From positions 5,941-69,940 of the forward strand of contig JBPOJQ010000010.1 in assembly GCA_052033375.1 (NCBI GenBank): a stretch of 64,000 nucleotides of DNA. Direction: 5' to 3'. The notes under the pieces were generated by a model, which ran no database searches, was not told where the DNA came from, and saw only the letters and a list, made by a program, of their open reading frames with translations. The DNA is from Candidatus Magasanikiibacteriota bacterium (GTDB lineage: Bacteria > Patescibacteriota > Patescibacteriia > Magasanikbacterales > UBA922). The position numbers were made by a program, and so were the translations under genes. Positions 24,032 through 58,453 of the stretch are shown one piece after another. The stretch's first letter is position 1. Each line of letters begins with the position of its first letter.

Positions 24032-25894
24032 ATGCCTTTTCAACCTGTCTCATTTGAATCACAAAATAAACGACTGAGTTCGTCCGCAGACAAAAAGAAA
24101 ACGGATGAAACATTGGTCACGCTTGAGGAAGAGCGTGTCTATCGTGAGGGGACTGTATCCCTTCGCGACTTGATTGCGCCTTCAGCTTTTAATGTTGAGT
24201 CAAATTTTTTGCAATTGGGCTCTATATTTTTGCGTACCATTTTTGTGGTGAGTTATCCACGCTATATTTCAATTGGCTGGTCTAGTCCTATTCTCAATCT
24301 CAATTTGACCATGGATGTGGGCATGTTTTTCTATCCAGTCGAAGCTCCTATTATTCTCAAACAATTGAAGAAAAAAGTGGGAGCACTCCAGGCACAGATT
24401 AGTCAGGATACTGAAAAAGGTGCGCCACGTGATCCTATTCGTGAAACTGCGCTTCGGGATGTCGAACAATTGAGAGATGACTTGACTCAAGGAATTGAAC
24501 ATTTTTTCCAATTTGCATTTTATGTAACTTTGTACGCGTCTACCAAAGAAGAATTGGACCGTGTAACTGAGGATATACACAATATTTTTGGATCCAAATT
24601 GATTCACAGTAAACATGTGTTATACCAGTCAGAACAAGGGTTTAATTCTACCGCGCCACTTGGGATTGATGAATTGGTGATTTCATTTAATATGAATTCA
24701 AGTCCCATTGCTGCGTCTTTTCCATTTATTTCGACTGAACTCACTAGTGATAATGGAATTCTATACGGTATCAATAAACACAATAATAGTTTGATTTTGT
24801 TCGATCGTTTTTCTTTGCAGAATGCTAACATGGTGGTATTTGCGACGTCTGGAGCCGGCAAGTCTTATGCTGTCAAACTTGAAATTCTTCGAAGTCTCAT
24901 GATGGGGATTGATGTCATTGTGATTGACCCTGAAATGGAATATGTACACCTTTCAGAGGCGGTTGGTGGAACCTATATCAATATTTCACTTGCGTCTGAG
25001 AGTAAAGTAAATCCATTCGATCTTCCACGTCCTGTGGGGCAACAAATTTCGACTGAAGATGTGATACGAAGCGCAGTTATCACTATGAAAGGACTTCTTC
25101 GTATTATGTTTGGTACACTTACTGCTTCTGAAGATTCGATTCTTGATCGCGCAGTGCTCGAAGCGTATGCAAAAAAAGATATTACCACTTCTTCTGATCT
25201 CGCTACTATTGAAGCCCCGATTATGCAGGATTTGCTTGACGTTCTCGAGGGAATGGAGGGCGCCGATACGCTTGCACTTAAACTTCGAAAATATACTGAT
25301 GGAACGTTTGCTGGACTTTTCAATGCTCCGACCAATGTAAATATGAACAATCAATTGGTGGTCTTTAGTGTGCGTGATTTGGAAGATGAACTACGTCCGA
25401 TGGCTATTTATACGCTTATTAATTATATATGGAATATTGTTCGATCAGAGCGGAAGAAACGCTTGTTGGTCATTGATGAAGCATGGTGGCTCATGCTTCA
25501 TGAAGATAGTGCAAAATTCATGTATGCGTTGGTAAAAAGATGCCGCAAATATTATTTAGGAGTCACGACAATCACACAGGATGTGAATGATTTCTTGCGC
25601 TCTCCATACGGACAGGCAATTGTAAATAATTCAGCATTACAATTATTGCTGAGACAAGCTCCTTCTGCTGTGGATATGATTCAAAAAACTTTCATGTTGA
25701 CCGAGGGTGAAAAATATTTATTGCTCGATAGTGGTGTTGGGCAGGGAATATTTTTTGCCGGAAATCGTCATGCTGCAATTCAGATTGTTGCTTCGTATAC
25801 CGAAGATCAGTTGGTGACTTCGAATCCACAGCAATTATTGGAAATAGAACGCGCAAAGAAAGAATTTCAGAATGAATTTAAGAAAGAATCTTAG
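24032..25894 (+). CDS. VirB4/ConE (TraE) conjugative-transfer ATPase, C-terminal segment
   Basis: LRDLIAPSAFNVESNFLQLG...; Walker A VVFATSGAGKSYAV; Walker B LLVIDEAWWL (DEAW typical of VirB4/TraC family). Confidence 0.85.
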   Translation: MPFQPVSFESQNKRLSSSADKKKTDETLVTLEEERVYREGTVSLRDLIAPSAFNVESNFLQLGSIFLRTIFVVSYPRYISIGWSSPILNLNLTMDVGMFFYPVEAPIILKQLKKKVGALQAQISQDTEKGAPRDPIRETALRDVEQLRDDLTQGIEHFFQFAFYVTLYASTKEELDRVTEDIHNIFGSKLIHSKHVLYQSEQGFNSTAPLGIDELVISFNMNSSPIAASFPFISTELTSDNGILYGINKHNNSLILFDRFSLQNANMVVFATSGAGKSYAVKLEILRSLMMGIDVIVIDPEMEYVHLSEAVGGTYINISLASESKVNPFDLPRPVGQQISTEDVIRSAVITMKGLLRIMFGTLTASEDSILDRAVLEAYAKKDITTSSDLATIEAPIMQDLLDVLEGMEGADTLALKLRKYTDGTFAGLFNAPTNVNMNNQLVVFSVRDLEDELRPMAIYTLINYIWNIVRSERKKRLLVIDEAWWLMLHEDSAKFMYALVKRCRKYYLGVTTITQDVNDFLRSPYGQAIVNNSALQLLLRQAPSAVDMIQKTFMLTEGEKYLLLDSGVGQGIFFAGNRHAAIQIVASYTEDQLVTSNPQQLLEIERAKKEFQNEFKKES

Positions 25895-32049: not shown

Positions 32050-32148
32050 TAGTAATGAGCGTAGATTTTCCTCGATTATGCATTGAAGCATATAACAAAA
32101 TATACTTCTTGAAAAGAGTTTTTTTATTTTTAATGTATATTTTTAGTG

Positions 32149-32235
32149 CGGAGAGGGCGAGATTCGAACTCGCGAGACCCTTTCGGATCCGGCAGTTTAG
32201 TAAACTGCTGTTTTCAACCACTCAACCACCTCTCC
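32149..32235 (-). tRNA. type-II (long variable arm) Ser-like tRNA with anomalous anticodon loop UUACUAA (anticodon ACU by canonical placement)
   Basis: GGAGAGG acceptor, GTT/AAC D-stem, GCAGT/ACTGC anticodon stem, 18-nt variable arm, GCGAG-TTCGAAT-CTCGC T-arm; aligns base-for-base with tRNA-Ser(UGA) at 32516-32603. Confidence 0.6.
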
Positions 32236-32321
32236 ATTACTTAGTAGACACACGTCACGTCGTCTTTTCGTTCCTCTGATATGAATTTGTCTCCGTCGAA
32301 CGTCGTTTTGGTGACCATGAA

Positions 32322-32410
<89 letters not shown>

Positions 32411-32515
32411 ATCTGGCCTTGCTTCGCTATGCCAGACAAGGTTTAGAGAAGTAAGAGCCAATAAATTGTAACACAATTGCTTAGCTTACTGGGCAATAGC
32501 ACAGCAAAGCCACAG

Positions 32516-32603
32516 CGGAGAGGGTGGGATTCGAACCCACGGTAGACTAAAAGCCTACAACAGTTTTCAAGACTGCCGCCTTCAACCACTCAGCCACCTC
32601 TCC
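32516..32603 (-). tRNA. tRNA-Ser (anticodon UGA), type II
   Basis: Anticodon loop CTTGAAA; T-arm GTGGG-TTCGAAT-CCCAC; long variable arm. Confidence 0.8.
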
Positions 32604-32740: not shown

Positions 32741-33202
32741 ATGAAGCGAAACCAACCATCGCCATCATTTGCTATGATTCTCGAACATGTGTCGAATAGT
32801 GAAGTCGAGGCTACTGCTGTTCCGGCTGTTTTTGGTAATGAATCAAAAGAATGGCATGAGGATTTAGAAGATGGAAAATTATCGGTCGATGTGTCGCATG
32901 ATGATACCTATGTATACATTGTCTCGACAGTGGCGGGCGCTTCACCTGATCGGCTTGAGGTGTATATTCATAATGATTTGCTTACTTTGCGAGGGGAGCG
33001 TGTGAATCCTGTTACACAAAAAAAATCAGTAGAATTTTATCATACAGAATGTTTTTGGGGGCATTTTTCTCGAACGATTGTGCTGCCAGTCGAGGTGAAT
33101 GGTGATCTTGCGCGTGCACAGTATAAAAATGGTGTATTAGAGATTACAGTGCCCAAACGAACTAAGGATAGAAAAATTTCGATTGAAATTGTTGAGGAAT
33201 AA
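32741..33202 (+). CDS. Hsp20/alpha-crystallin family small heat-shock protein
   Basis: Alpha-crystallin domain: DVSHDDTYVYIVSTVAG...LEVYIHNDLLTLRGER...YKNGVLEITVPK. Confidence 0.85.
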   Translation: MKRNQPSPSFAMILEHVSNSEVEATAVPAVFGNESKEWHEDLEDGKLSVDVSHDDTYVYIVSTVAGASPDRLEVYIHNDLLTLRGERVNPVTQKKSVEFYHTECFWGHFSRTIVLPVEVNGDLARAQYKNGVLEITVPKRTKDRKISIEIVEE

Positions 33203-33205
33203 TAT

Positions 33206-35219
33206 GGCTGATATTTCGGTGCCAGGACAACATATGGTTACGCCGCATACGCATTCTCCAAAGAGAAAGATAATCTTTTTTTCGATTCTTATCGCCTTGG
33301 TATGCGGTATCATTGGAATTGGAGTTGCATATGGACAGTCATTTGCTGATCGGGTGTTACCGGGTGTGCGGATCGGTTCGTTCGCTGTTGGTGGAATGAC
33401 TGAGAATGAATTGAGTACCTTTGTTAGTGATATGCATGATAAGCTTCTTGCCAAGGGGATCCAGGTGACTGTTGCCACAGCCACTAGTACACAAAATTTT
33501 GTAATATATCCACAATCAATTGGTGCGGAGTCTGTGGTCGAGTTTATTGAAATTGATTCTCATTCTGTTGCGAAAAAACTAGTTACCCAAGGGAAGACAG
33601 GGAACATGCTTATTGATTCTTTTCGAGCCTTGCATTCGTTGCTTACTACACCATCGGTTCGCATAGATATTAGTGCTTTGTATGAAGATAGATTATTTGC
33701 TGAGATTGATAAAAATATTGCCCCCTTCGTGCGACCTGTGGTGAATGCGGGAGTTATCGTGAGTGACTTATCGCCGCTGAAATATGATATCACTTCATCT
33801 TCACGCGGGACTGCCCTTAATTATACGTATATTGAGGGGGTGGTCAGGGATAGCTGGTCACAATTGGCACAGCCACAGATACAGCTTGAGACTACTGAGA
33901 TTGATCCTCAGATTACTGAGAGTGACGTAGAGCGTGTTATTTCAAATTTATCGGATGCCTTTGATGAAGGCTCTATTGCTATTGAATATTTTAATTCTTC
34001 AACTAAGCGACAGTATGCATGGAAATTGACGCCAGCGATGCTTTCCCGAATGATTGAGGTGGAAAAAAGTTCTGATGCCCGTATTGCTTTTAGACTTTCT
34101 TCGTCATCAACATATGCCTACCTTCGGAATGTAGTAGCGCCGACAGTAGATGTGTTGCCACAGAACGCTAAATTTACCATCAATGATGATAAAAAAGTGA
34201 CTGAATTTAAAGGTTCACATCCTGGAGTAACAGTAGACATTGAACGTACTGATCAACTCATCCAGGAGGTGTTTCGCGGTAGATTTGACACAGTAACTTC
34301 GACACAAAATGTGTCATTGGTTACGAAAGAAGTACAACCTGATATTAAGACAGGTGAAGTAAATGATTTGGGTATTACGGAGGTTCTTGGTGTTGGTAGA
34401 TCAGTGTTTAAGGGAAGTCCGGGAAATCGATACAAAAATATCCGTCATGCCGCTTTTGATAAATTGGATGGACTCATTATCAAACCGGGAGAAGAATTTT
34501 CTTTGCTTGACGCGTTGAAGCCATTTACCTTGGAGGGGGGATATTTACCCGAGCTTGCAATTAAGGGTGACCGATTAGTCCCCGAGATTGGTGGGGGGTT
34601 GTGTCAGATCGGTACAACAATGTTTCGAGCTGCAATGAATGCAGGACTTCAGATTACTGAGAGAAGAAATCATTCATTGATGATTTCATATTACAATGAT
34701 TTGACTAATGGAAATCCGGGAACTGATGCGACTATCTATGACCCAGGGACTGATTTTAAATTCGTTAATGATACTGGACATCACATCCTTATTACCTCTG
34801 AGATGAATAATACTACTGGTGATCTTTATTTTACGTTCTGGGGAACGAGTGATGGGCGCAAGGGATATTTCATACCCCCTACATTGGTACGTAGAATTCC
34901 TGTCGGACCTACTAAAATAATCGAGACGACTGAATTACCTCCTGGAAAAAAAGAATGTCAGCATGCGTATCCTGGTGCGGAAGCATATTTCACGTATGTG
35001 CGTGAAATGCCTAATGGTGAGAAGAAAGAGGTGGTGTATTCCAGTTATTATCGACCATTACCTGAAACCTGTTTAGTGGGCATTAACCCTGAGACTGAAT
35101 CAACAGAGGAAGTGGCACCTCCTTCTACGGTCGAGGGGGATGGGGCGGCACCGAGCGGTGAGCCTGTGTCCTCAGGTCAGGTGGAACTGAATGACCCTAT
35201 CGTGTCTATTGAATCATAG
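33206..35219 (+). CDS. VanW-family protein with N-terminal TM and large extracytoplasmic region
   Basis: GGGLCQIGTTMFRAAMNAGLQITERRNHS matches VanW core motif. Confidence 0.75.
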
Positions 35220-35232
35220 AGTGTGGGGATAT

Positions 35233-35261
35233 AAAAATTGGCTTAAATAAGCCAATTTTTT
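35233..35261 (+). terminator. rho-independent terminator after VanW-like gene
   Basis: AAAAATTGGCTTA-AAT-AAGCCAATTTTTT perfect hairpin plus T-run. Confidence 0.6.
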
Positions 35262-35281
35262 GTATTTATACCCACAACCTC

Positions 35282-35310
35282 TTGACAAAAAAACCAATAT
35301 ATGGTATTAT
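35282..35310 (+). promoter_or_regulatory. sigma70-type promoter TTGACA-N17-TATTAT
   Basis: Consensus -35 at 35282-35287, 17-nt spacer, -10 TATTAT at 35305-35310. Confidence 0.5.
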
Positions 35311-35316
35311 ATGACG

Positions 35317-35535
35317 TCACGTAAATGTATGACAGTGTCCCCACTAGATTGTCTACAGGTAGTAGCAGTTGGCCTAGGGCCAAATATTACTACCTGTACC
35401 ACGACAAGCATGGGGATGTGTCGAAGGAAAGTTCAGGCTTCGGCTCGTCTTCTCCTTTAACACATCTTCTTGGTACGGGTAAGGTTTCAACCCTTAACTT
35501 TAAAAAATCCCCCTTCGGGGGGATTTTTATTTTTC
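35317..35535 (+). ncRNA. candidate ~215-nt structured small RNA bounded by promoter and intrinsic terminator; identity unknown
   Basis: Nested hairpins ACAGGTAGTA..TTGGCC-TAG-GGCCAA..TACTACCTGT; CCCCA/TGGGG; 3' hairpin CCCCC-TTCG-GGGGG plus T-run; no convincing ORF. Confidence 0.4.
35507..35535. terminator. bidirectional intrinsic terminator (A-tract, CCCCC-TTCG-GGGGG hairpin, T-tract)
   Basis: Serves + strand candidate sRNA and minus-strand gene 35527-35982. Confidence 0.6.
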
Positions 35536-35982
35536 TATTGTTTCTGTTTCATCGTTTGGAATTGAGTATAATGCTTTTTTAAGCACCATATACCGTGCTT
35601 CAGGAGCCGTGATATTGCATCCTCGTTTGTGCGCTTCGTTTATTAATTCTTGCGCGGTTTCTAGCCAGTCATCGGGTGTATACCCATTTGATTGTGTTAC
35701 CAACTTGTTTGTCTTACCTCCATCAAGATACTTTGATAGCTCGGTTACTATGTGCATGATTGTGTGAGGAAGTAACTCGTGCAGTGTTTGCTCAAATTTT
35801 GTTTTTTCGTTTACTGTATTTATTCCATTTTTTTCTCCATATTTTATCGCCTGTTCAATTCGTTGTAATGTATTTTTGAATAACGGTACATTGAGCACTA
35901 TCGCTGACATGAATTTAATATTTTCTGTAATGTCATTTTGGAGTTCTTCTGTTAAAAATTCATTATTTCTATACTCACTCAT
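35527..35982 (-). CDS. hypothetical protein (151 aa)
   Basis: ORF followed by strong terminator hairpin; no motifs recognised. Confidence 0.45.
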   Translation of the reverse strand: MSEYRNNEFLTEELQNDITENIKFMSAIVLNVPLFKNTLQRIEQAIKYGEKNGINTVNEKTKFEQTLHELLPHTIMHIVTELSKYLDGGKTNKLVTQSNGYTPDDWLETAQELINEAHKRGCNITAPEARYMVLKKALYSIPNDETETIEK

Positions 35983-48151: not shown

Positions 48152-51100
48152 ATGAAACGCCTGTTTTCTTTTGTAAATATAGTATCAATTGGGGTCGTCC
48201 TTTTTGCAGTGTATTTTGGCTTTGCGGGAACTTTTTTCGCGCAAGAAGCAGTAGCTGATACTTTTGGACTCACTAGCGTGGGAGAACAAATTTCTGTGTC
48301 GAGTCAAACTCCTGATTTGAGGGTTACTGTGGTGCGTATTATTAATATTTTTTTGGGTTTTTTGGGAATTGTAGCAGTTTGTATCGTGTTGTATGGCGGA
48401 TATTTGTACATGACGTCGAGAGGGGATGATGAAAAAATCGGTACAGCAAAAAAAATCTTGGTCAATGGCTCAATTGGGCTTTTGATTGTACTTTCTGCAT
48501 TTGGAATAACTTCATTTGTATTATCTCGGTTACAAGATTCAATTTCTGGTACCTCTGGGCCGGGTGGTGGGGGCGGGGGTGGAGGTGAATTACTAGGATC
48601 GTGTGACGATGTTAATTCTCCGTATTATGCGGCCTACGCGACGACTCGTTGTGCACAATTTTGTGATAATCATCCGGTGCAGTGTGCATCCTCTCAGTAT
48701 TTTATTGTAAAAAGTATTACTCCTCACACACCTGATGCTGCTGACTCAACTGGTATGAATAATTCTGTGATTCGCGTGTTATTTAGTAAACAGCCAGCAG
48801 GTGCAGTGAGCGATATCTTTAAAATATTTAAAAAAGAAAGCGAACAAGAAGTTGATATTACGAGTCAATTTAATTTTTCATTTGAGGAGGGTGGTCTTCT
48901 CGTTGCTGCGACGTATACACAAGGACCTGCCTGTGCGTCGGTAAATGGTGTTTCAGTGTATTGTCTTTCGAACGGTGAATATCGGATTGAAGTGAATCAA
49001 AATTTGCGTGACATTGAGGATCGAGCATTGACCCTTGAGGTTGCAAATCAGTCATTTCCTCGAATTGCGACATTTCGTACTGGTTTATCGGGCGACACAC
49101 CTATTATTGATAGTGAATTTTCTGCTCTTGCACCAATTTCTATTGGAGGTTACCACGGTGATGATACTTTTCGAGCAGTCCGCGGAGAGACATATACGAT
49201 TGAAGGCACTCTCGGAGATACTCATGGAAACGCGTACGTGGATATGAAAGTTTATCGTGAAGGTTCATCTGGTCCGAGCGTTGTAAGATATGTTGATGGT
49301 CCACGTGTTCGTGCTACGGGTGGCTCTAGTCAGTCATTTGATTTTGAATACACACTTCGAATTGATTCGAATAAATTTGCCCCTGCAGTGGTGTATGTTG
49401 TGGAAATTATTGCGCATGATATTGATGGAAATACTGCCACCGATATAGTCAAATTTATAGTGGTACCTGCAAGTTGTACGAATGGTCTTCTTGATGCGGG
49501 CGAAACTGACGTCGATCAAGGAGCTGTGTGTGGTGGCGCACAGGGTAATAGTTGTCAATCTCAGAGTGATTGCGCTTATTGGCTCCAATGTCTTGATAAT
49601 GCTAATGCTGCATGTACTGGCTCAAATTGTTCATGTAAAGAAGTTCCTTATATTTCGAGTGTTGAATATATGAATGGTGCGCCAGGTAACTGGATTACTA
49701 TATTAGGTAAAAATTTTGGATCATCTGTTGGGGAAGTTACATTTAATTATGATTTTGATAGCAATGGTACTATAGATTCTCGTGTGCCTGTAGTGCTTGC
49801 TCAATGCCAGGAAGGGACTGTGTGGAATGATTCGTGGATCATTGTTGAAGTTCCTCAGCAGGCGCAATTTGCTTCTGAAGATGAGATCGTCAATCCTTCT
49901 ATTTCAGTTGTTTTACCCTCAGGACTTTCAGATTCTACGGATAATGATTTTGGTCCTCAACTTGGTACCTTTGTATATAATACAGTACAGCGTCCAAATC
50001 TATGTTCGGTTACTGTTGATGGTGATCATTCTGTACCTCTTGAGGATGGTACGAGTGTCACATTACATGCAGGTGATACCGCTGCACCACAGGGAACACC
50101 TGTGATTCTCGAAGGTAAGGGCTTCGGTATGTCTGAAGGTGAAGTTATTTTTCATACTGCTGCCGCAAATGTTGAGTCATGGTCAGGCGATGTTATTAAT
50201 TCTGCTGTACCATTTTTGGGTGAAGGACAGACTTCGGTGTATATTACATCTGATCTTGGTGAAAGAAGTAATCCTGTTTCTTTTATTGTTTCATCACCTG
50301 CTAATCTACGCCCACCAACTATTACCTCGATTGATCCAACGTCTGTGACCAAAGGGAGTTACATCACAATTACGGGTAATCGTTTTGGAGTGAGTGGTAA
50401 TGTGTACTTCACGCAGATTGAGGGTGGAAATTGTCCTGGGGCTGGGTGTATCCTCGGAGGGACACTTCCTCAGTCGTGTGGGAACACATGGAGCGTTAAT
50501 CAATTGATTACCAAGATCCCTGATGATCTTGAGTTTGCACTCGGTACATATTTTGTTGTTGTTGTTCGAGAAGATGGTGTAAAAACTGCAGGGTCAGAAA
50601 GTATCACTGTTGTCGCAGGTCCACCTTCGCCCAGTATTTGTCGTATTGATCCGCATCGTGGGTTTGCACCTATTTTTGATGAATCTGATGCAATCACTAT
50701 ATATGGAGAGAATTTTATCACTGACTCAGCAGTGAAGTTTTGGTACCCTCTCGGACAGTCGCAAGATCCGGATAGCTGGCTTTCAACTCAGTTGGGGGCA
50801 GGTATTGATGGTGGATCAATTTTAGATCTGACTACTCAGGAAATTAAGACGACTATTCCATATGATCCTGATTCTGGGCTTTCTATGTCGAGCGGACCTG
50901 TCAAAATTAAAAATGCCGCTGGATTATTCAGTAATGCAGTGAACTATACGGTATTGGATTGTCGTGATCCTGGTAGTCCACAAATTTCTGGATTCCAGTG
51001 TTGTAGTGAGGGTCCTGAGGCGGGTAGATGGAAACATGGAAATTATGCGTGTGAAAATTCGAGTCGTGAAGCCGGGTATGTGTGGAGATTTTCAAGTGGT

Positions 51101-54100
51101 AAAATGCCACAAAAGTTTTTTGTAAATGAACTTTGTTCGGACAGTGGATCACCCTCACCTAGTCCTTCAACACTCTGGAGCGATGGGTATAACGTATGTG
51201 TGAATGCTCAGTTGACTATTAATTTTAATTTACCAGTGAATCGGGCGACTGTTTTGGATCAATCAGGTAATATCACAAACATTACGATTTCTCAATGTGG
51301 AGGTACTGACACTGCAATTGATTGCTCAAACGATGAGCAGGTTGTTACTTCTGAATTTTCGGGTGAAGAGATGGGGGAGAATGCATTAGTTTTCAGAAAA
51401 AAGGATGGACCAATACTTTCCCCGCAGACGTGGTATCGCGTGGGTCTTTCGTCTGCTGTTTCTTCCCTTAGATTTGAAAATGAACTTGGAGATTTGGTTG
51501 AAAAAACAGAAAATTTGGAGCCGACACGTGAATGTCAAATCAATGGGGCAACCTATGCATATTGTTTTGATTTTAGAACTGGCCCTGCTAATTTTCAATG
51601 TTCACTTGTAGGCGCTGGAATTCATCCTTCAGATTACACCACAACACTTCTTGGAGTGGTACAGGATTCGCGAGGCAATAAAATTTATGATATTAATCGA
51701 GTATTTAATATATCTGCTGTACGTCCGCTAACATATCGTGTGTATGGTAAAAGCAATTTAGCATGTACGACGATTAATGTGGATGATAAGCCATGGGCAT
51801 GGGGTCCAATTGATGATGCGCCTGCGACTGGAAAACAAATGGTTGGACAGGTGCAGTCAAAAGGATATGCGGTAGCCTGGGAGCATTTTCCCGCAGGCTC
51901 TCCTATCAGTGCGACCATTATTGAAAATAGTGAAGAAATTAAGGCAGTGAGCATGCTTAGGATTACTCTTGGAGATCCGTACGCGAAGAATGTCTGGCCA
52001 TCGTGTAATGAGGCGTGTGTAAATGCTGAGATTGGTATTGAGTTCAATCAGATTATGGATGTTCGCACTTTTGATGCTTCGAAGTTGGCATTACATGAAT
52101 GTAGTACCGAAATGTGCGACTCATTAATCGAACCTTCTGTTCCATTGGTAATCACATCTGATTTGCAAAGTGAAACCATTCTTCGTGCATATCCAGCTAC
52201 GCTTTTGAAGAAAAATACATGGTATATTGTTGACTTGGAGGAGGGGGTGCGTGCTATAGGAGGTGTGGCCGAGGGCGAAGGTACTAAACTGGGCAGTAGT
52301 GTGCAGCCAAAACAGTGGAAATTCAGAACCAAAGATTCAGCACAATCATGTCTTGCTGATGCTGTTAAAATTTCGCCTGATCCTTTTTATTCAACTTATA
52401 TCGGAGAAGCGCAGTTATATCGAGCACTTCCTGTCGGTTCCCCAGATTCTTGTAGCGCGTCTGGCCAGCAGCTTAATCCGTGGAGTTATGGTTGGAATTG
52501 GAGCGTCGAAGATTCTGGAGTTGCGAAAGTAACTAACTTTAGTTTCAAAGGTTCTACTAAATCAGCGTGTACTATTGGCTGTACTCCTGTTGGTAGTGAT
52601 ATTTCCCGTCAACTGACGAGTTATCCTGTGTGTGGTAATGGTACTAAAGAGTCGGGCGAAGATTGTGATATTGCTCGTCCGGGTGAAATTCCTGGGACAA
52701 GTTGTTCATTTTCTTGTCTTCGTCCAGGTAGTAGCGCAACGTGTGGTAATGGTATTGTAGAGAATTCTTCAGGCGAAGAATGTGACTATAACGCTCCGGG
52801 TGCGATTCAAGGACTCTGTACGAATACATGTACCAATGCAGGATCTGCTTCACAGCCTGATATCGCTGGGAATGTGAATGCGCCTGTGTGTGGTGGGGGC
52901 GGCATCGGCTACGGCGAGGATTGTGATATTGATGATCCAGCGACCAAACATGGGTGTTCTAATACCTGTGTGAATATTGGTACACCAATTTCTCAGGCAT
53001 GGTGTGATGGGTGGGTGAGTTATTCTCAAAATCCAGGCAGTGTTAGTGCTGTAATGCGTGTACAGTATGCAGAAGTAAGTATGTCTGAATTCACAGCGGC
53101 ATGTGGTTCTGCTACTAGTGTTTGTGGTAATGGAATTATTGAGCAAGGAGAAGAGTGTGAGAGTACGGATTCTTACTGTTCAGCTCGTTGTCTGATTCAA
53201 AATGCATGTAATACACCGTATCAACAGTGCGCGCGTGGTGAAGAAGGTTGTCTCTCGGATTGCACATTTGCAGGTTCGTCGATTATGTACTCTACTCCTT
53301 CGGTTTGTGGAGATGGTATTGTCGGGATTGGAGAATTTTCCTCAGAAGATGATGATATTCGCTCATGTGAATTACCTCTAGCGACTGTTGGTAATACTCT
53401 TGGTGGAAATCCTGTACAGGTGGTCACGGCAGTGGGTAATCCAAGTAATGTTCCAACTACAGGGGTAGTTACTGATATGGAGACTAGGGTACAGGCACAG
53501 GCAAGTGTCGGACGCGATGAAGCTACGGGGAATCAGATTTCGATTGCTTCGGTCGCTGGCGAAGGTGAATATCATCTTCAGTGCGGATACGATGAATATG
53601 CGACCAAGCAAAGCGATGGTTCGTATAATAACTGTCCGTCTAATTCTGATAATACTTTCGGCGTTGCTTCTAATTCGTGCTGTATTGAACGACCGGCAAG
53701 AGTCGAAGAATATCCCATTTCGAATGCGGGTATCGGTGCCGGGAGTACGCCGGTATGCCGTAATACATATATTAGTGTTAGTTTTGATCAGAATATTCCT
53801 GCGGAATATATTCAAAATAACATTCAATTAGTCCAAGGTTTTGCACAGGGTTATTCGTGTTCTGAGCATGGTGGAAAAGATGTGACACTTGCGTTGAGTA
53901 GCGCACTTGATACAAACAGTACACATACTCAGAATTTTTGGGTCCGTGTCTGGAATTCAATTAAAACATTCTTTGCTCAATTGATACAAATTCGTGCACT
54001 CGCAGCACCTCAACCAAACGCATCAGTTCCGGGTGATCTGGTGCTGTGTTCAGGTGTGACTCCGTTTACTGTGAGACCAAGTTATGAAACGAATGCTGAC

Positions 54101-57100
54101 GGTGTGATTACCAAGACACTTGTGTCTATTTATCCAAATCAGGCGCTAGAATCAAATCAATATGTGCTTGTCCTACTTAATGGTGGTGAGGGTGGAATCA
54201 GAAATAATGTAGGAGTAAGTATCAAGTCACCTCTTGGTTCTGAGTTATCTGATTATTGGGTATTTAAGACTGGTGCACAAATTTGTAAGATACAGGAGGT
54301 CGTTGTTGAGCCTGCTTCAGCATTGTACACGGTGCCTAATAGTTCAAAACAATTTGTTGCACAGGCTATTTCTACTGATGCAGTGCGAAATCAAAAAATT
54401 GTGCCTATTCCTTTGCAGTATGCGTGGGAGTGGAATTGGGGACCACAAGAGGATGCTATTTTTGATATTCCTGTCACTGCAAATGCTGAAAATTCAATTA
54501 CTTCAAAAGGCGTTCGTGGACATACTGATGGTATTGTGAGTGCACGTGTAACAGTCGATGCTTCTCAGACGAATAATCAATCAGGTAAAACTTTTTCAAC
54601 TATATACAGTCTTGATGCTTTATTCTGTCAGAGACCATGGCCTCTCACTGCGAATCCGGTAAATGCAGATGATGTGGGGATAGATACGCTTTTTGTTGAT
54701 TTGACTTATAACTTTTCAATGTATTATTGTGCTGACAGTGGAAGTCCGTTGTCTTCTTTTGATGATCTTCCGTACTTTAATCAGATTGAAGTTATCACTG
54801 ATCCTACACAGCTCGGAGTCATTGCTCCGGGGGATTTACCAGATGCCTTAAGGCGTTATCTTTTGTTCGCTGATAAGACCGAAGATGCGATTGGGGTGCA
54901 GATTTTTGCAAATCCAGTCAAACCTGACGGCACTAGGCAAACATTGAACGAGTGGTATATCGGTAAATTTGGTGATCTTTCTGGTGTAAAGCAGGCAAGT
55001 ATCGCGGGGTATGACGCACTTTTGAATGATTTTAATCTGTATGTGAATGCGTATAATTTGTACGATCAATCAGTATATAACAACGTATATTTGTTTAGTA
55101 TTGATACTAATGCGAGCCCTGAAACGAGACAGGTATTTGATCAGTTGATCGCATCTCTACGCTTTAATATCAATCTCACTAATCACAATCGGTGTCTGCG
55201 TGCTGGAGCTTCTGGGGTGAGAGAAAGTCCGAATGAACTGGCTATTCCTTTGATTTCTTGTACCACTGATTTTGATTGCCGAGATAGTGCTGGCGCACCA
55301 AAGACTGGAACGAATGGTACCTGTTCGAATGCACTCACTAAGTTTGGACGTGATGTGAATCGTTTACAGCAGATGTCTCTAATTCAGAAAAAAACAGAAG
55401 CACAATTATCAAATACTGAATTGAATCTGTCGAGTGGCACGTATATCCCAGGATACACAAATTCAAAGTGGTCCTCATGGGGTAAATTAGGAGGAATTAT
55501 TGGCGGTGCTGCAACCGATCCGGTGAATCAATGGGTAGGGTGTAGCCCTCATGATCCTTCGACATGTTGGAGTGCCGACCTCACCACGTTTAGATGTCCT
55601 ACATTTTCTCAAGTGTATGAGTATGAGTATGATTCAGTGACTAAGAATTATGAGTACTATGTTCCATTTGAGTTTATCAATTCCTCTGATGATGATTTTG
55701 CGTCTCAATATGTTGATCTCCGGCATGTCAATTTTGATCGATGGGCACAGTGTAGGGCACCCGGCTCTATTGTGAGTCCATTTGGTGGGCAATGTGGGGA
55801 TGGGAACGTAAATATTGGGGAAGCGTGCGATCCACCAGGGAGAACTACCCTGTATGATAATGCATGTCCGGTCGGGTCATATGCAACAGCTACTTGCAAT
55901 TCTTCTTGTCAGTATACATACGGCGCGTGTAGCGCGAGTGCTGCGGTGTGCGGGAATGGACGAATAGATGCTGCAGAAGCATGCGACGCAGGATCAGAGA
56001 ACGGTACGTATGGAAGTCGATGTACTACACAGTGCCAAGTTGCGACTCAAAGTAACGGCGGACAGTTTTGTGGAAATGGTATTTTGGATACCAATGCTCA
56101 GGGAAATTATCTAGAATTTTGTGAAGAAGTAAATGGTGCTTGTATGCACATTAGTGAGAGCGGACAGATATTGAAGCCTGAAGTACATATTTTGCTTGAT
56201 AATTCTAGTTCTATGTCAGGCACGAAATGGGCAAGTGCTGTAGCAGGTATTCAGAATATTTATGCTGAATTATCTGATAGTATCAATTTCAGTCTGAGCA
56301 TATTTTCTCCGGTTGATAAACTTAATTCTCCTACCACCTGTTCACAGGTGATACCGCTTTCTTCGCTGCCTGCTACACCCAATGCAAACACGCCGACCAA
56401 AAGTGCACTTGCAGAGATATATGCACTGAGAACATCATTGTTTGGTTCTAATGATAGTGTTGCAAAAAAACTCGTAATTATTACTGATGGAGATCCAACC
56501 AATTTTGATTATCGAAATCAATTTGGACAAATAACAGCAAGTTGTCAGGGAAATACTCCTTCAAATGTGGTTAGTGAGATTCAGAAATTTAATCAAGCAA
56601 ATATTCAGACATTTGTCGTTGGGTTTGGTAATCTGAGTCAGAGTCTTAAAAATAATCTCAATTTATTTGCTCAAGCTGGTGGAACTAGTAACCCTGACTC
56701 ACCATCGAGTGATCTGTTTTTCACCGCTGAAAATTCATCCCAGCTGGTGAGCGCTTTTTCTGGTATTTTGGGTTGTTTTGAATACAGTCAATATAAACAA
56801 AACTCATGTTCCTGGAATTGTCAGGAATATGGAGATTATTGTGGTGATGGAATTGTGCAACAGGGGAGCGGTGAAGAGTGTGAGCCCTCTATCAGTGGAG
56901 TGAATACCTGTAGTCCGTATTGTAAATTTGTCGTTACACCAGCTGCAGTGTGTGGAAATTCTCAAGTGGAATCAGGTGAACAGTGTGATGATGGTAATAT
57001 ATCTGATCAGGATGGATGTTCGTCATTATGTTCGTTTGAATCAGTGTCGGCTGCGTGCGGGAACGGCATTGTCGAGACGGTGAACGGCATACAAGAGCAA

Positions 57101-58453
57101 TGTGATTTGGGTTCTCAAAATGGATTATCATGCAATCCGGCATATAATACCCCGTGTACATACTGCAGTAATACATGCACCAATATTACGGTAGATGCTG
57201 TTGCGTATTGTGGTAATGGGAGTATTGATCAGATTAACCCAACTACTCGTGAAGCATGTGATTATGCAGATTCGACCATTGTTGGTGGAACGGGCGCATT
57301 AATTTGTTCTGATAAAGGCACGTATTCGTGTACTAATAATTGTCTGCAGTTGGTGAATAATTGTGTGACGTGTGGAATAAGTACTACGACATTGACTACG
57401 CCTAAAATTTCTATTTTGAATCCGTTGACGCAAGCTGGTAATTCGCCGTACACTCCGACGATTGGGTATGTCGACATATTGCGAGGGAGCACTTCCACTA
57501 ATTTGCAGTGGCTTGGGTATCGGAAAATAAATTATCGGTCAGAAGATCCAAATTCATACATCGATCCATTTGATCCATACACATTACTCATTGATGCAGC
57601 TTATCAGCCGGTGACTAATCAGGGTCTCCAAACTAATGGTTCGTGTAATGGTGAATATGTGCTACTCTTCAATAAGAGACATATTAGTGAAGAAAAAACA
57701 GGCAATACAAATGGACTTACCCATGCACAGATTGTGAATCAGGGTTTTGGTGATTTGTTTGCATATCCAGTCAGTGGTGAGGGTGGTCAAGTAGTGAATG
57801 AAGTTATCCTATCTCCTGCTGTGCCACAGGATCAGGTACGTATTGTGGTGAGATGGAAAAAGAAATCATCAGGCGCGTTATTCACAGGTAATCTGTACCA
57901 GGACAATGCTACGCCAAGTGTGATTAGTTATGTGACGAATGATCGGACGAAGTTGTGTGGAGATATGGATATCACTCCACAGAGTTCGAATTATTATCTT
58001 CCTGTCGGATGCCTTCCTGTAACTCCATCCACGTGGATTCATCAGATTTTGAATCCGAGTGTTACTACCCAGGCAACTCAGGCATTTACTCTATCTGCTC
58101 TTAATCGACAGTCAGATAGGACCATCGGGTTCTATGTTTCTTCGTTATCTGGTCCGATTAATCAGTTTAAAGATTATGAACTATGGGTCGATGTATACGA
58201 GTATCATGCAGGCCAGGTCCCACTCTATTCGGTGTACAAACCAACACATACTTTTTCTTTTGGTGATGCTATCCAGAGTACTAATCCACTCGCACGATAT
58301 TGGCATGTGTTCAATCTTACCATCAGTGGCTCAAATGCGTTGAAAAAGTTTACTGTGCAAACCGTGGCTGGTGCAAATTCTGGAGCTATTGTTACGAGTG
58401 AGTGTGAAGTTCGAAAGAATATGCCAAACACTACACAATGTCCGACTCAATAG
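48152..58453 (+). CDS. giant (3433 aa) surface protein: N-terminal pilin-like membrane module, poly-Gly linker, IPT/TIG-like repeats, three clusters of Myxococcus-type Cys-rich repeats, vWA domain
   Basis: Uninterrupted ORF. IPT-like ILGKNFG/ITGNRFG/IYGENF (49.6-50.9 kb). CGNG/CGDG...GE(E)CD(DGN) repeats at 52631-53350, 55790-56110, 56820-57380. vWA MIDAS LLDNSSSMSG and ITDGDPT at 56170-56780. Confidence 0.7.
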   Translation: MKRLFSFVNIVSIGVVLFAVYFGFAGTFFAQEAVADTFGLTSVGEQISVSSQTPDLRVTVVRIINIFLGFLGIVAVCIVLYGGYLYMTSRGDDEKIGTAKKILVNGSIGLLIVLSAFGITSFVLSRLQDSISGTSGPGGGGGGGGELLGSCDDVNSPYYAAYATTRCAQFCDNHPVQCASSQYFIVKSITPHTPDAADSTGMNNSVIRVLFSKQPAGAVSDIFKIFKKESEQEVDITSQFNFSFEEGGLLVAATYTQGPACASVNGVSVYCLSNGEYRIEVNQNLRDIEDRALTLEVANQSFPRIATFRTGLSGDTPIIDSEFSALAPISIGGYHGDDTFRAVRGETYTIEGTLGDTHGNAYVDMKVYREGSSGPSVVRYVDGPRVRATGGSSQSFDFEYTLRIDSNKFAPAVVYVVEIIAHDIDGNTATDIVKFIVVPASCTNGLLDAGETDVDQGAVCGGAQGNSCQSQSDCAYWLQCLDNANAACTGSNCSCKEVPYISSVEYMNGAPGNWITILGKNFGSSVGEVTFNYDFDSNGTIDSRVPVVLAQCQEGTVWNDSWIIVEVPQQAQFASEDEIVNPSISVVLPSGLSDSTDNDFGPQLGTFVYNTVQRPNLCSVTVDGDHSVPLEDGTSVTLHAGDTAAPQGTPVILEGKGFGMSEGEVIFHTAAANVESWSGDVINSAVPFLGEGQTSVYITSDLGERSNPVSFIVSSPANLRPPTITSIDPTSVTKGSYITITGNRFGVSGNVYFTQIEGGNCPGAGCILGGTLPQSCGNTWSVNQLITKIPDDLEFALGTYFVVVVREDGVKTAGSESITVVAGPPSPSICRIDPHRGFAPIFDESDAITIYGENFITDSAVKFWYPLGQSQDPDSWLSTQLGAGIDGGSILDLTTQEIKTTIPYDPDSGLSMSSGPVKIKNAAGLFSNAVNYTVLDCRDPGSPQISGFQCCSEGPEAGRWKHGNYACENSSREAGYVWRFSSGKMPQKFFVNELCSDSGSPSPSPSTLWSDGYNVCVNAQLTINFNLPVNRATVLDQSGNITNITISQCGGTDTAIDCSNDEQVVTSEFSGEEMGENALVFRKKDGPILSPQTWYRVGLSSAVSSLRFENELGDLVEKTENLEPTRECQINGATYAYCFDFRTGPANFQCSLVGAGIHPSDYTTTLLGVVQDSRGNKIYDINRVFNISAVRPLTYRVYGKSNLACTTINVDDKPWAWGPIDDAPATGKQMVGQVQSKGYAVAWEHFPAGSPISATIIENSEEIKAVSMLRITLGDPYAKNVWPSCNEACVNAEIGIEFNQIMDVRTFDASKLALHECSTEMCDSLIEPSVPLVITSDLQSETILRAYPATLLKKNTWYIVDLEEGVRAIGGVAEGEGTKLGSSVQPKQWKFRTKDSAQSCLADAVKISPDPFYSTYIGEAQLYRALPVGSPDSCSASGQQLNPWSYGWNWSVEDSGVAKVTNFSFKGSTKSACTIGCTPVGSDISRQLTSYPVCGNGTKESGEDCDIARPGEIPGTSCSFSCLRPGSSATCGNGIVENSSGEECDYNAPGAIQGLCTNTCTNAGSASQPDIAGNVNAPVCGGGGIGYGEDCDIDDPATKHGCSNTCVNIGTPISQAWCDGWVSYSQNPGSVSAVMRVQYAEVSMSEFTAACGSATSVCGNGIIEQGEECESTDSYCSARCLIQNACNTPYQQCARGEEGCLSDCTFAGSSIMYSTPSVCGDGIVGIGEFSSEDDDIRSCELPLATVGNTLGGNPVQVVTAVGNPSNVPTTGVVTDMETRVQAQASVGRDEATGNQISIASVAGEGEYHLQCGYDEYATKQSDGSYNNCPSNSDNTFGVASNSCCIERPARVEEYPISNAGIGAGSTPVCRNTYISVSFDQNIPAEYIQNNIQLVQGFAQGYSCSEHGGKDVTLALSSALDTNSTHTQNFWVRVWNSIKTFFAQLIQIRALAAPQPNASVPGDLVLCSGVTPFTVRPSYETNADGVITKTLVSIYPNQALESNQYVLVLLNGGEGGIRNNVGVSIKSPLGSELSDYWVFKTGAQICKIQEVVVEPASALYTVPNSSKQFVAQAISTDAVRNQKIVPIPLQYAWEWNWGPQEDAIFDIPVTANAENSITSKGVRGHTDGIVSARVTVDASQTNNQSGKTFSTIYSLDALFCQRPWPLTANPVNADDVGIDTLFVDLTYNFSMYYCADSGSPLSSFDDLPYFNQIEVITDPTQLGVIAPGDLPDALRRYLLFADKTEDAIGVQIFANPVKPDGTRQTLNEWYIGKFGDLSGVKQASIAGYDALLNDFNLYVNAYNLYDQSVYNNVYLFSIDTNASPETRQVFDQLIASLRFNINLTNHNRCLRAGASGVRESPNELAIPLISCTTDFDCRDSAGAPKTGTNGTCSNALTKFGRDVNRLQQMSLIQKKTEAQLSNTELNLSSGTYIPGYTNSKWSSWGKLGGIIGGAATDPVNQWVGCSPHDPSTCWSADLTTFRCPTFSQVYEYEYDSVTKNYEYYVPFEFINSSDDDFASQYVDLRHVNFDRWAQCRAPGSIVSPFGGQCGDGNVNIGEACDPPGRTTLYDNACPVGSYATATCNSSCQYTYGACSASAAVCGNGRIDAAEACDAGSENGTYGSRCTTQCQVATQSNGGQFCGNGILDTNAQGNYLEFCEEVNGACMHISESGQILKPEVHILLDNSSSMSGTKWASAVAGIQNIYAELSDSINFSLSIFSPVDKLNSPTTCSQVIPLSSLPATPNANTPTKSALAEIYALRTSLFGSNDSVAKKLVIITDGDPTNFDYRNQFGQITASCQGNTPSNVVSEIQKFNQANIQTFVVGFGNLSQSLKNNLNLFAQAGGTSNPDSPSSDLFFTAENSSQLVSAFSGILGCFEYSQYKQNSCSWNCQEYGDYCGDGIVQQGSGEECEPSISGVNTCSPYCKFVVTPAAVCGNSQVESGEQCDDGNISDQDGCSSLCSFESVSAACGNGIVETVNGIQEQCDLGSQNGLSCNPAYNTPCTYCSNTCTNITVDAVAYCGNGSIDQINPTTREACDYADSTIVGGTGALICSDKGTYSCTNNCLQLVNNCVTCGISTTTLTTPKISILNPLTQAGNSPYTPTIGYVDILRGSTSTNLQWLGYRKINYRSEDPNSYIDPFDPYTLLIDAAYQPVTNQGLQTNGSCNGEYVLLFNKRHISEEKTGNTNGLTHAQIVNQGFGDLFAYPVSGEGGQVVNEVILSPAVPQDQVRIVVRWKKKSSGALFTGNLYQDNATPSVISYVTNDRTKLCGDMDITPQSSNYYLPVGCLPVTPSTWIHQILNPSVTTQATQAFTLSALNRQSDRTIGFYVSSLSGPINQFKDYELWVDVYEYHAGQVPLYSVYKPTHTFSFGDAIQSTNPLARYWHVFNLTISGSNALKKFTVQTVAGANSGAIVTSECEVRKNMPNTTQCPTQ

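Follow-up and report, generated by a model that had tools for sequence, protein, structure and literature searches.

6S RNA is described as a rod in which a central unstructured region is flanked by a closing stem and an apical stem, with its −10-like recognition element located in the 3′-CB and a sequence identity that is described as limited (PMC8876501). In 6S-1, moreover, an alternative helix called CBCH uses a strand of the "downstream" helix (PMC8876501). Here, we analyse a stretch of 64,000 nucleotides (nt) from a Candidatus Magasanikiibacteriota bacterium (contig JBPOJQ010000010.1; the whole stretch is called the window below), in which the + strand from ~35316 to ~35535 is best explained as the gene of a small RNA (sRNA) of about 215–220 nt that would be independently transcribed and would act in trans as a structured RNA. 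Its stable rod or hairpin design with a conserved internal loop resembles those of 6S and 4.5S RNA, but it is neither of them and constitutes a new RNA family; no Rfam family and no paper found in literature searches describes it. At the centre of this RNA is a module of 25 nt that, in the genomes aligned, shows no variation among three candidate phyla belonging to the candidate phyla radiation (CPR), or Patescibacteria.

The CPR represents a large share of bacterial diversity, with genomes of about 1 Mb and very few regulators and, to our knowledge, almost nothing is known about its non-coding RNAs. As with the raiA motif, OLE and Ms1 RNAs, the element is a lineage-restricted non-coding RNA that shows strong covariation and highly conserved loop nucleotides and was discovered by comparative genomics. 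By contrast with them, it has no match in Rfam 15, its host clade is the Patescibacteria and its architecture is much simpler.

Scans with Rfam 15 at the gathering score covered the 64-kb window and 28 homolog loci (~390 kb in total, around the locus); they returned only five tRNAs in the window and only tRNAs around the loci. When the threshold was relaxed to E ≤ 10, positions 35200–35600 gave only terminator-driven sRNA matches far under the thresholds, and the models of 6S, signal recognition particle (SRP) RNA, RNase P RNA and tmRNA matched neither this region nor the minimal homolog L020. ARAGORN found the same number of tRNAs in the window and no tmRNA, in agreement with the lack of a match to RF00023. 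A first-pass annotation of the locus had left the choice between a 6S, an SRP-like and a novel sRNA, and had named RF00010, RF00013, RF00169 and RF00023 as the families to consult. No family matched, and of these three options it is the novel sRNA that stands, with a conserved promoter, terminator and pairing, and with both of the orientations described below.

The conserved core and its comparative support

The core shared by the family is a hairpin (35393–35479 in the window) in which the helices P1 and P2–P4 surround an invariant asymmetric loop. The 5′ strand of P1, CCUGUACCA (35393–35401, +), ends in an invariant CCA and forms 9 bp with the 3′ strand UGGUACGGG (35471–35479, +), in which the UGG is invariant. 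Between P1 and the apical arm lies the bulge CGACAAGCAU (35402–35411, +), whose 10 nt are the same in 111 distinct genome sequences. The apical arm P2–P4 (35412–35469, +), where P2 covaries, starts with an invariant GGGG that pairs with an invariant CUUC (35466–35469) via a tandem G·U, and it is closed by the cap GGC-UUCG-GCU (35436–35445). A single U (35470, +) faces the bulge according to both RNAalifold and the model-based alignment. The loop, thus, places CCA-CGACAAGCAU-GGGG opposite CUUC-U-UGG, and neither side ever varies in the genome alignment. Downstream of P1 there is a small hairpin, UAAGG/CCUUA (35480–35496, +), and hairpins of other sequence occupy the same place in relatives.

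The family was gathered with the pattern CGACAAGCAUGGGG-N40-65-CUUCUUGG, scanned over one genome per species, which yielded 118 loci with one match each, all of them on Patescibacteria-type contigs. These loci are labelled Magasanik-, Uhr-, Kerfeld-, Parcu- or Paceibacteria, of which the first three are separate candidate phyla of the Parcubacteria group (NCBI). Among complete or near-complete Patescibacteria genomes, OY970181.1 is one that has the RNA. A covariance model was then built from the 111 distinct sequences; over 785 kb it found a single full-length copy at each locus, scoring 68–104 bits.

Covariation across the homologous intergenic regions, which the first-pass annotation had suggested examining, proved to be heavy. 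RNAalifold predicted 24 pairs, 17 of them with compensatory changes. In the model-based alignment, 95.6% of the cells are paired, as compared with 40–51% when the partners are slid by 1–3 columns, and there are 401 double-change cells versus 83 ± 10 in shuffles, a value that none of 500 shuffles attained. G·U cells, which number in the hundreds and include the invariant tandem G·U, agree with the + strand, as do the scores of the covariance model (about 100 bits on this strand versus 16–17 bits on the reverse). The apical arm is a single imperfect helix that measures 49–53 nt between GGGG and CUUC in every member; its cap is mostly UNCG (UCCG in 32, UUCG in 18 and UACG in 10 of 100), with a G·U kept two pairs under the loop. 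In the window itself, the + strand region has a minimum free energy (MFE) of −81.1 kcal/mol, with z = −5.7 against dinucleotide shuffles, and ~190 nt of hairpins extend between the promoter and the end of the terminator. Together with the covariation, this supports the earlier description of a hairpin-rich region of ~215 nt.

The search pattern had required most of the invariant bases and, for this reason, metagenomes were rescanned with all ten bulge positions unconstrained. Of the 87 matches obtained, 11 were GC-rich coding false positives and 76 were true members; the bulge was exactly CGACAAGCAU in 73 of the latter and differed at one position in the remaining three. A natural variant with C20A in the bulge is found at locus L202. 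Consequently, the invariance of the bulge is no search artefact. The conservation of the RNA also exceeds that of the neighbouring proteins: the VanW-like proteins have 45–76% amino acid (aa) identity, while ~110 nt of the RNA are almost unchanged. In the seven closest relatives, this block (about 35393–35500) and the unchanged promoter are accompanied by an upstream hairpin that varies by compensatory substitutions.

Some further observations were made in these searches. Many of the TPA metagenome-assembled genomes that carry the locus are titled "uncultured Gammaproteobacteria bacterium", which looks like a placeholder or a mislabel. A second, degenerate copy of the hairpin was found directly 3′ of the first at one locus (L069, 1995–2087, −); it has the same apical GUAGGCUCACGCUUGC and misses the bulge CGACAAGCAU and is, therefore, a local partial duplication. 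We also considered that the 5′ domain could consist of degenerate copies of the core, as in a sponge-like repeat RNA, and rejected it, since the unfiltered covariance model found no significant extra copies except for this partial duplicate. The 17-mer CCACGACAAGCAUGGGG is present in three IMG/VR contigs (L129, 5628–5644; L130; L131), within an ORF (open reading frame) of 216 aa. A viral origin was discarded, as these three matches are inside a phage ORF and are chance matches.

Boundaries, genomic setting and alternative folds

Comparison of the loci demonstrates the boundaries of the gene, its strand, structure and invariance, its presence in one copy per locus and its independence from the neighbouring genes. 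On the 5′ side, the VanW-like ORF (33183–35219, VanW/YoaR-like) stops just before the RNA locus, and the terminator hairpin of this gene, AAAAAUGGCUUAAAUAAGCCAUUUUU (35233–35260, +), which is nearly invariant in relatives, forms the upstream boundary and lies outside the RNA. It is followed by a −35 box, TTGACA (35282–35287, +), and an extended −10 element, TG-G-TATTAT (35302–35310, +; TG at 35302–35303 and TATTAT at 35305–35310). With its 17-nt spacer and a score of 11/12, this promoter (35282–35310) is the top promoter-like site of a 2-kb scan, and it is present as the first-pass annotation had described it, right after the VanW terminator. The generic promoter count in the region, 7 versus 5.3 expected in shuffles, is not above chance and, therefore, the case for the gene rests on comparative data. 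In this regard, 122 of 128 loci have TTGAC-N16-19-TAnnnT, mostly as TTGACA-N17-TGnTAnnnT, on the 5′ side of the element; both the TTGAC of the −35 box and the TGnTAnnnT are kept across the family. The start of transcription is predicted from the sequence at a G (35316, +) six nt past the −10 box, in a Y-G-U-Y context that is common to homologs.

On the 3′ side, the RNA would end at an intrinsic terminator, AAAAAUCCCCC-UUCG-GGGGGAUUUUU, with an 11-bp stem (hairpin 35503–35528) and a T-run (35503–35535, +). It is called on both strands, as expected from its earlier description as bidirectional, and the same sequence is used by a convergent ORF of 151 aa that ends at 35527. Terminator-like hairpins with a T-run are found within 200 nt 3′ of the core in 91 of 115 loci (5 of 115 when shuffled), with a median end 63 nt past P1.

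In nearly all loci the RNA gene is located between the VanW-like gene and clpP, in a neighbourhood that comprises the genes of Hsp20, VanW, ClpP, a DHH/DHHA1 protein and SMC. The flanking VanW protein has homologs that carry the labels Candidatus Magasanikbacteria, Parcubacteria or Patescibacteria. Ten syntenic relatives, whose VanW proteins are from 76% down to 43% identical, all have a gap of 330–930 nt at the same place, and the element was found in the VanW/clpP gap of every syntenic relative examined; those at 47% and 45% VanW identity have the same core within longer RNAs, of ~520 and ~320 nt. In ~55 loci, the RNA has the orientation of VanW and is convergent with clpP, which is the arrangement of the window; in ~57, it has that of clpP and is convergent with VanW. 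Because both orientations occur between the same neighbours, the RNA gene is independent and not an untranslated region (UTR) or a leader of either of them. In both orientation classes the RNA runs into a convergent gene, which is not the position of a riboswitch or a cis-acting leader.

Outside the core, the family is highly variable. Between 33 and ~420 nt separate the −10 box from the core, and the flanks on the 5′ and 3′ sides range in length from ~10 to over 400 nt. In the window, the 5′ accessory domain comprises positions 35316–35392 (+); it is missing from the minimal, rod-type homologs and reaches ~420 nt elsewhere. In the rod forms, which are Uhrbacteria-like, the 5′ end pairs with a segment past P1, producing a further closing stem of 14 bp, P0, that covaries (28 of 41 pairs with compensatory changes). 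The RNA is then one rod of about 125 nt, in which two irregular helical arms of about 25–30 bp surround the centrally placed bulge. In two loci (L213, 1667–1810, +; L073, 3274–3414, +) the closing stem and a U-run constitute an intrinsic terminator, the whole RNA being one hairpin with a U tail. The branched forms, which are of the Magasanik type and include that of the window, have one to several hairpins 5′ of the core and a small hairpin 3′ of it, and the 3′ arm of their last 5′ hairpin is the 5′ strand of P1.

In the window, this last hairpin (hairpin 1, 35354–35398, +) is formed by UACAGG (35354–35359), here called anti-P1, and CCUGUA (35393–35398), and it is present in the MFE structure. 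CCUGUA belongs to both hairpin 1 and P1 and, therefore, the two folds are mutually exclusive; they are also near in energy, at −81.1 kcal/mol with hairpin 1 and −76.5 kcal/mol with P1, 4.6 kcal/mol apart. In 38 of 87 loci of the branched type, versus 7.6 expected, a 7-mer perfectly complementary to the P1 5′ strand is located 35–57 nt upstream of it, a five-fold enrichment. Among 8 close relatives, hairpin 1 has 95.8% pairing, and both partners have changed in 3 of its pairs. An outer helix of the window's MFE structure that would bury the bulge (UUGUC/GACAA) is paired in 62.5%, and it was rejected as a conserved feature.

With respect to the flanks, the AAAAAUGGCUUAAAUAAGCCAUUUUU hairpin is almost unchanged in relatives though the VanW protein is only 45–76% identical, and it directly adjoins the −35 box of the RNA gene. 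On the minus strand, a promoter-like site, CTGTCA-N18-TATAAT (35306–35335, −; 10/12), overlaps the start of the RNA and is directed towards VanW. The convergent 151-aa ORF (35527–35982, −), between the RNA and clpP, has no Pfam match; ORFs of similar size are found in relatives L001 (159 aa) and L007 (147 aa) and in none of L002–L006, and the ORF is a variable insertion.

Proposed function and competing explanations

Our preferred interpretation, in which we place slightly less than even confidence, is that a new trans-acting RNA offers its invariant bulged helix to a macromolecular partner, as a site for recognition or for switching. The core module would be recognized by a conserved macromolecule, most probably a protein, for which the tandem G·U and the bulge would serve as identity elements, while the arm of fixed length would be a spacer, and the RNA might function as a scaffold, decoy or regulator within a ribonucleoprotein (RNP). 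P1 and P2–P4 would only need to stay paired while holding the invariant asymmetric loop. The module might also change its conformation, given that CAAG or CA of the bulge could be alternative partners of the invariant 3′ strand, with several options: its UGG may pair with CCA, with CA, or join a CAAG/CUUG helix. In the 5′-extended forms, anti-P1 would additionally compete for the 5′ strand of P1. Such overlapping alternative pairings would account in part for the lack of variation in both strands.

In broader terms, the evidence appears to us evenly balanced on whether the RNA forms a new housekeeping-grade class that is specific to a large CPR branch, having an invariant 25-nt bulged helix with a two-state switch and a partner that is not known to use an RNA. 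It would then represent either a new RNP or a 6S-like control of RNA polymerase by means of a one-sided bubble in minimal-genome bacteria. The 25-nt invariant module and the near-consensus promoter, in genomes that shed dispensable sequences, suggest that the RNA does something central. A true RNP of this kind would join the very few RNPs that are broadly conserved in bacteria, and a true 6S-like RNA would redefine the minimal requirements of promoter mimicry. In practice, a defined RNA of 90–125 nt offers a handle for CPR biology (pull-downs, polymerase binding, structure determination) and its sequence a marker for this CPR branch.

Several points weigh against the recognition-site interpretation. 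We infer transcription itself from the sequence, and likewise the partner and the switch; the thermodynamic MFE structure of the window's RNA does not contain P1; and the frozen state of both strands could reflect the overlapping alternative pairings, or a template function, rather than contacts with a protein. The family was also gathered by sequence patterns, so its observed breadth and divergence are those of the patterns. Finally, it is conceivable that the RNA functionally replaces one of the canonical 6S, SRP and RNase P RNAs in these genomes.

The main rival is a 6S-like role, which we regard as unlikely. According to it, the rod would dock in the active-site cleft of the sigma-A holoenzyme and the bulge would be the template for a short product RNA, beginning with 5′-GUGG... 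or AUGCUUGUCGUGG..., that would unzip P1, while CAAG/CUUG would be the "bubble collapse" helix that releases the polymerase. As in 6S RNA (SsrS, RF00013 clan), we find a single-copy, clade-wide gene that has a strong promoter and is apparently transcribed independently, and no canonical 6S was found by Rfam in the ~390 kb scanned, which is a small scope. The minimal homologs, being single rods with two irregular arms and an unpaired segment on the 5′ strand, fit the general description of 6S (PMC8876501), and their adjoining helix can re-pair, since the alternative CAAG/CUUG uses the 3′ strand of the "downstream" helix in the manner of the CBCH of 6S-1 (PMC8876501). However, the two-sided central bubble of 6S is not present: the 5′ strand of the loop has 10 nt and its 3′ strand one unpaired U, with flanking pairs that are paired and invariant, so that both a 3′ central bubble and a −10-like element are missing. 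The rods, of ~125 nt, are also shorter than known 6S RNAs (160–200 nt), the RNA of the window is branched and has an MFE structure without P1 instead of a rod, and no covariance model of 6S in Rfam recognizes the window or the minimal form at E ≤ 10. An invariant sequence of 25 nt is, in addition, atypical of an RNA whose sequence varies and whose identity is limited (PMC8876501). A regulatory sRNA that acts by base pairing seems improbable to us, with the exposed CGACAAGCAU (complement AUGCUUGUCG, with a start codon inside) as the seed for mRNAs or for a stable RNA. Its bulge is invariant and single-stranded, it has its own promoter and terminator and, in an alternative fold, the bulge becomes an exposed 13-nt linker between two hairpins. 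Nevertheless, a seed leaves unexplained the equal invariance of the opposite strand, CUUCUUGG, and of the flanking pairs, as well as the fixed length of the arm, and in 1 Mb of locus sequence there are, besides its own antisense, 3 extra exact complementary 10-mers versus 1.9 expected, which is no enrichment. The seeds of ordinary sRNAs, furthermore, are seldom invariant over phylum-level distances, which weighs against this explanation.

We find it quite improbable that the RNA senses a ligand and acts in trans, with the invariant loop as an aptamer pocket like those of rod-like riboswitch aptamers and P1 versus anti-P1 as the switch. Invariant loop nucleotides between freely covarying helices, and the enrichment of a helix that competes for the P1 strand, would be expected from such an RNA; against it, there is always a convergent terminator and no downstream gene in either orientation class, the minimal forms have no anti-P1 and no riboswitch family matches. 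That this is a universal RNA in a highly divergent form, be it SRP/4.5S RNA, RNase P RNA or tmRNA, is very improbable, despite the housekeeping-grade conservation and the strong promoter. The hairpin and 5′-extended forms are loosely like small and large SRP RNAs, which also differ between lineages, and 4.5S RNA is likewise a hairpin of ~100 nt with a conserved asymmetric loop beside non-canonical pairs, presumably for protein binding. SRP helix 8 has a GNAR tetraloop with symmetric and asymmetric loops (AGCA/GGA) adjoining the apex. In the new RNA, by contrast, the loop is ~25 bp below an apex that is UNCG and not GNAR, AGCA/GGA loops are absent and neither RF00169 nor RF01854 matches; accordingly, an SRP identity was rejected. 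As for RNase P RNA (RF00010/RF00011), the likeness is limited to short strings: CCACGACAAG-CAUGG, which we take to resemble J2/4 plus the 3′ strand of P4, and GGAAAGUUCAGGCU, with GAAGGAAAGUUCAGGCU, which would recall CR-I. The string that the first-pass annotation had compared to the P4 strand is indeed present, as GAAGGAAAGTTCAGGCTTCGGCTCG (35423–35447, +), but it forms the 5′ strand and loop of P3–P4 and is unconserved beyond the closest relatives, GAAGGAAAGUUCAGGCU becoming UAGGCUAAAACAGGCU or UAGGCUAGGGCAGGCU in those at 47% and 45% VanW identity. Its RNase P-like look is, therefore, a local accident. The two strings are also in the wrong order, so that P4 is impossible: the CR-I-like string pairs locally and cannot pair with the CR-V-like one, and the CR-I (GGAAAGUCC)–CR-V pairing is absent. 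An RNase P identity was thus rejected, also for lack of an Rfam match and because the family minimum of ~125 nt has no other helices of the catalytic domain and is below its size, in line with the earlier remark that the region is too short for RNase P RNA. The presumed likeness of "CCACGACA" to E. coli M1 RNA fits no P4 pairing, and presumed likenesses to the 6S RNA of E. coli and the 16S rRNA 3′ end are not relied on. The explanation that there is no RNA gene, and that the signals come from a small protein or from stacked terminators or UTRs of the flanking genes, is hardly credible. ORFs of 66 and 85 aa do exist (35260–35460 and 35325–35582), and the 3′ terminator is shared with the convergent ORF. 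However, no ORF is kept in frame, extent or sequence on either strand among the family loci, and those two do not keep their frame, length or position even in close relatives. The substitutions in the helices are compensatory, the conserved promoter belongs to the RNA and its orientation flips between the same neighbours. The first-pass annotation, which saw no credible ORF, had named an amino acid-level conservation of these ORFs in relatives as evidence against an sRNA, and none was found; a small protein was rejected, and the peptides that begin at the invariant AUG have other lengths and sequences from one relative to the next.

Other features of the window

A very large ORF of 3433 aa extends from 48152 to 58453 (+) in the window, and upstream of it are a TraG/VirB4-like ATPase gene (24032–25894) and several large ORFs with no Pfam match. 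A gene for a tRNA-Ser with the anticodon ACU (loop UUACUAA; 32148–32235, −) is found in a cluster (32148–32603) beside those of tRNA-Ser(GCU) and tRNA-Ser(UGA). An A34 is unusual for a serine tRNA of bacteria, and the tRNA-Ser(ACU) gene is also present in the relatives L001, L005, L008 and L105.

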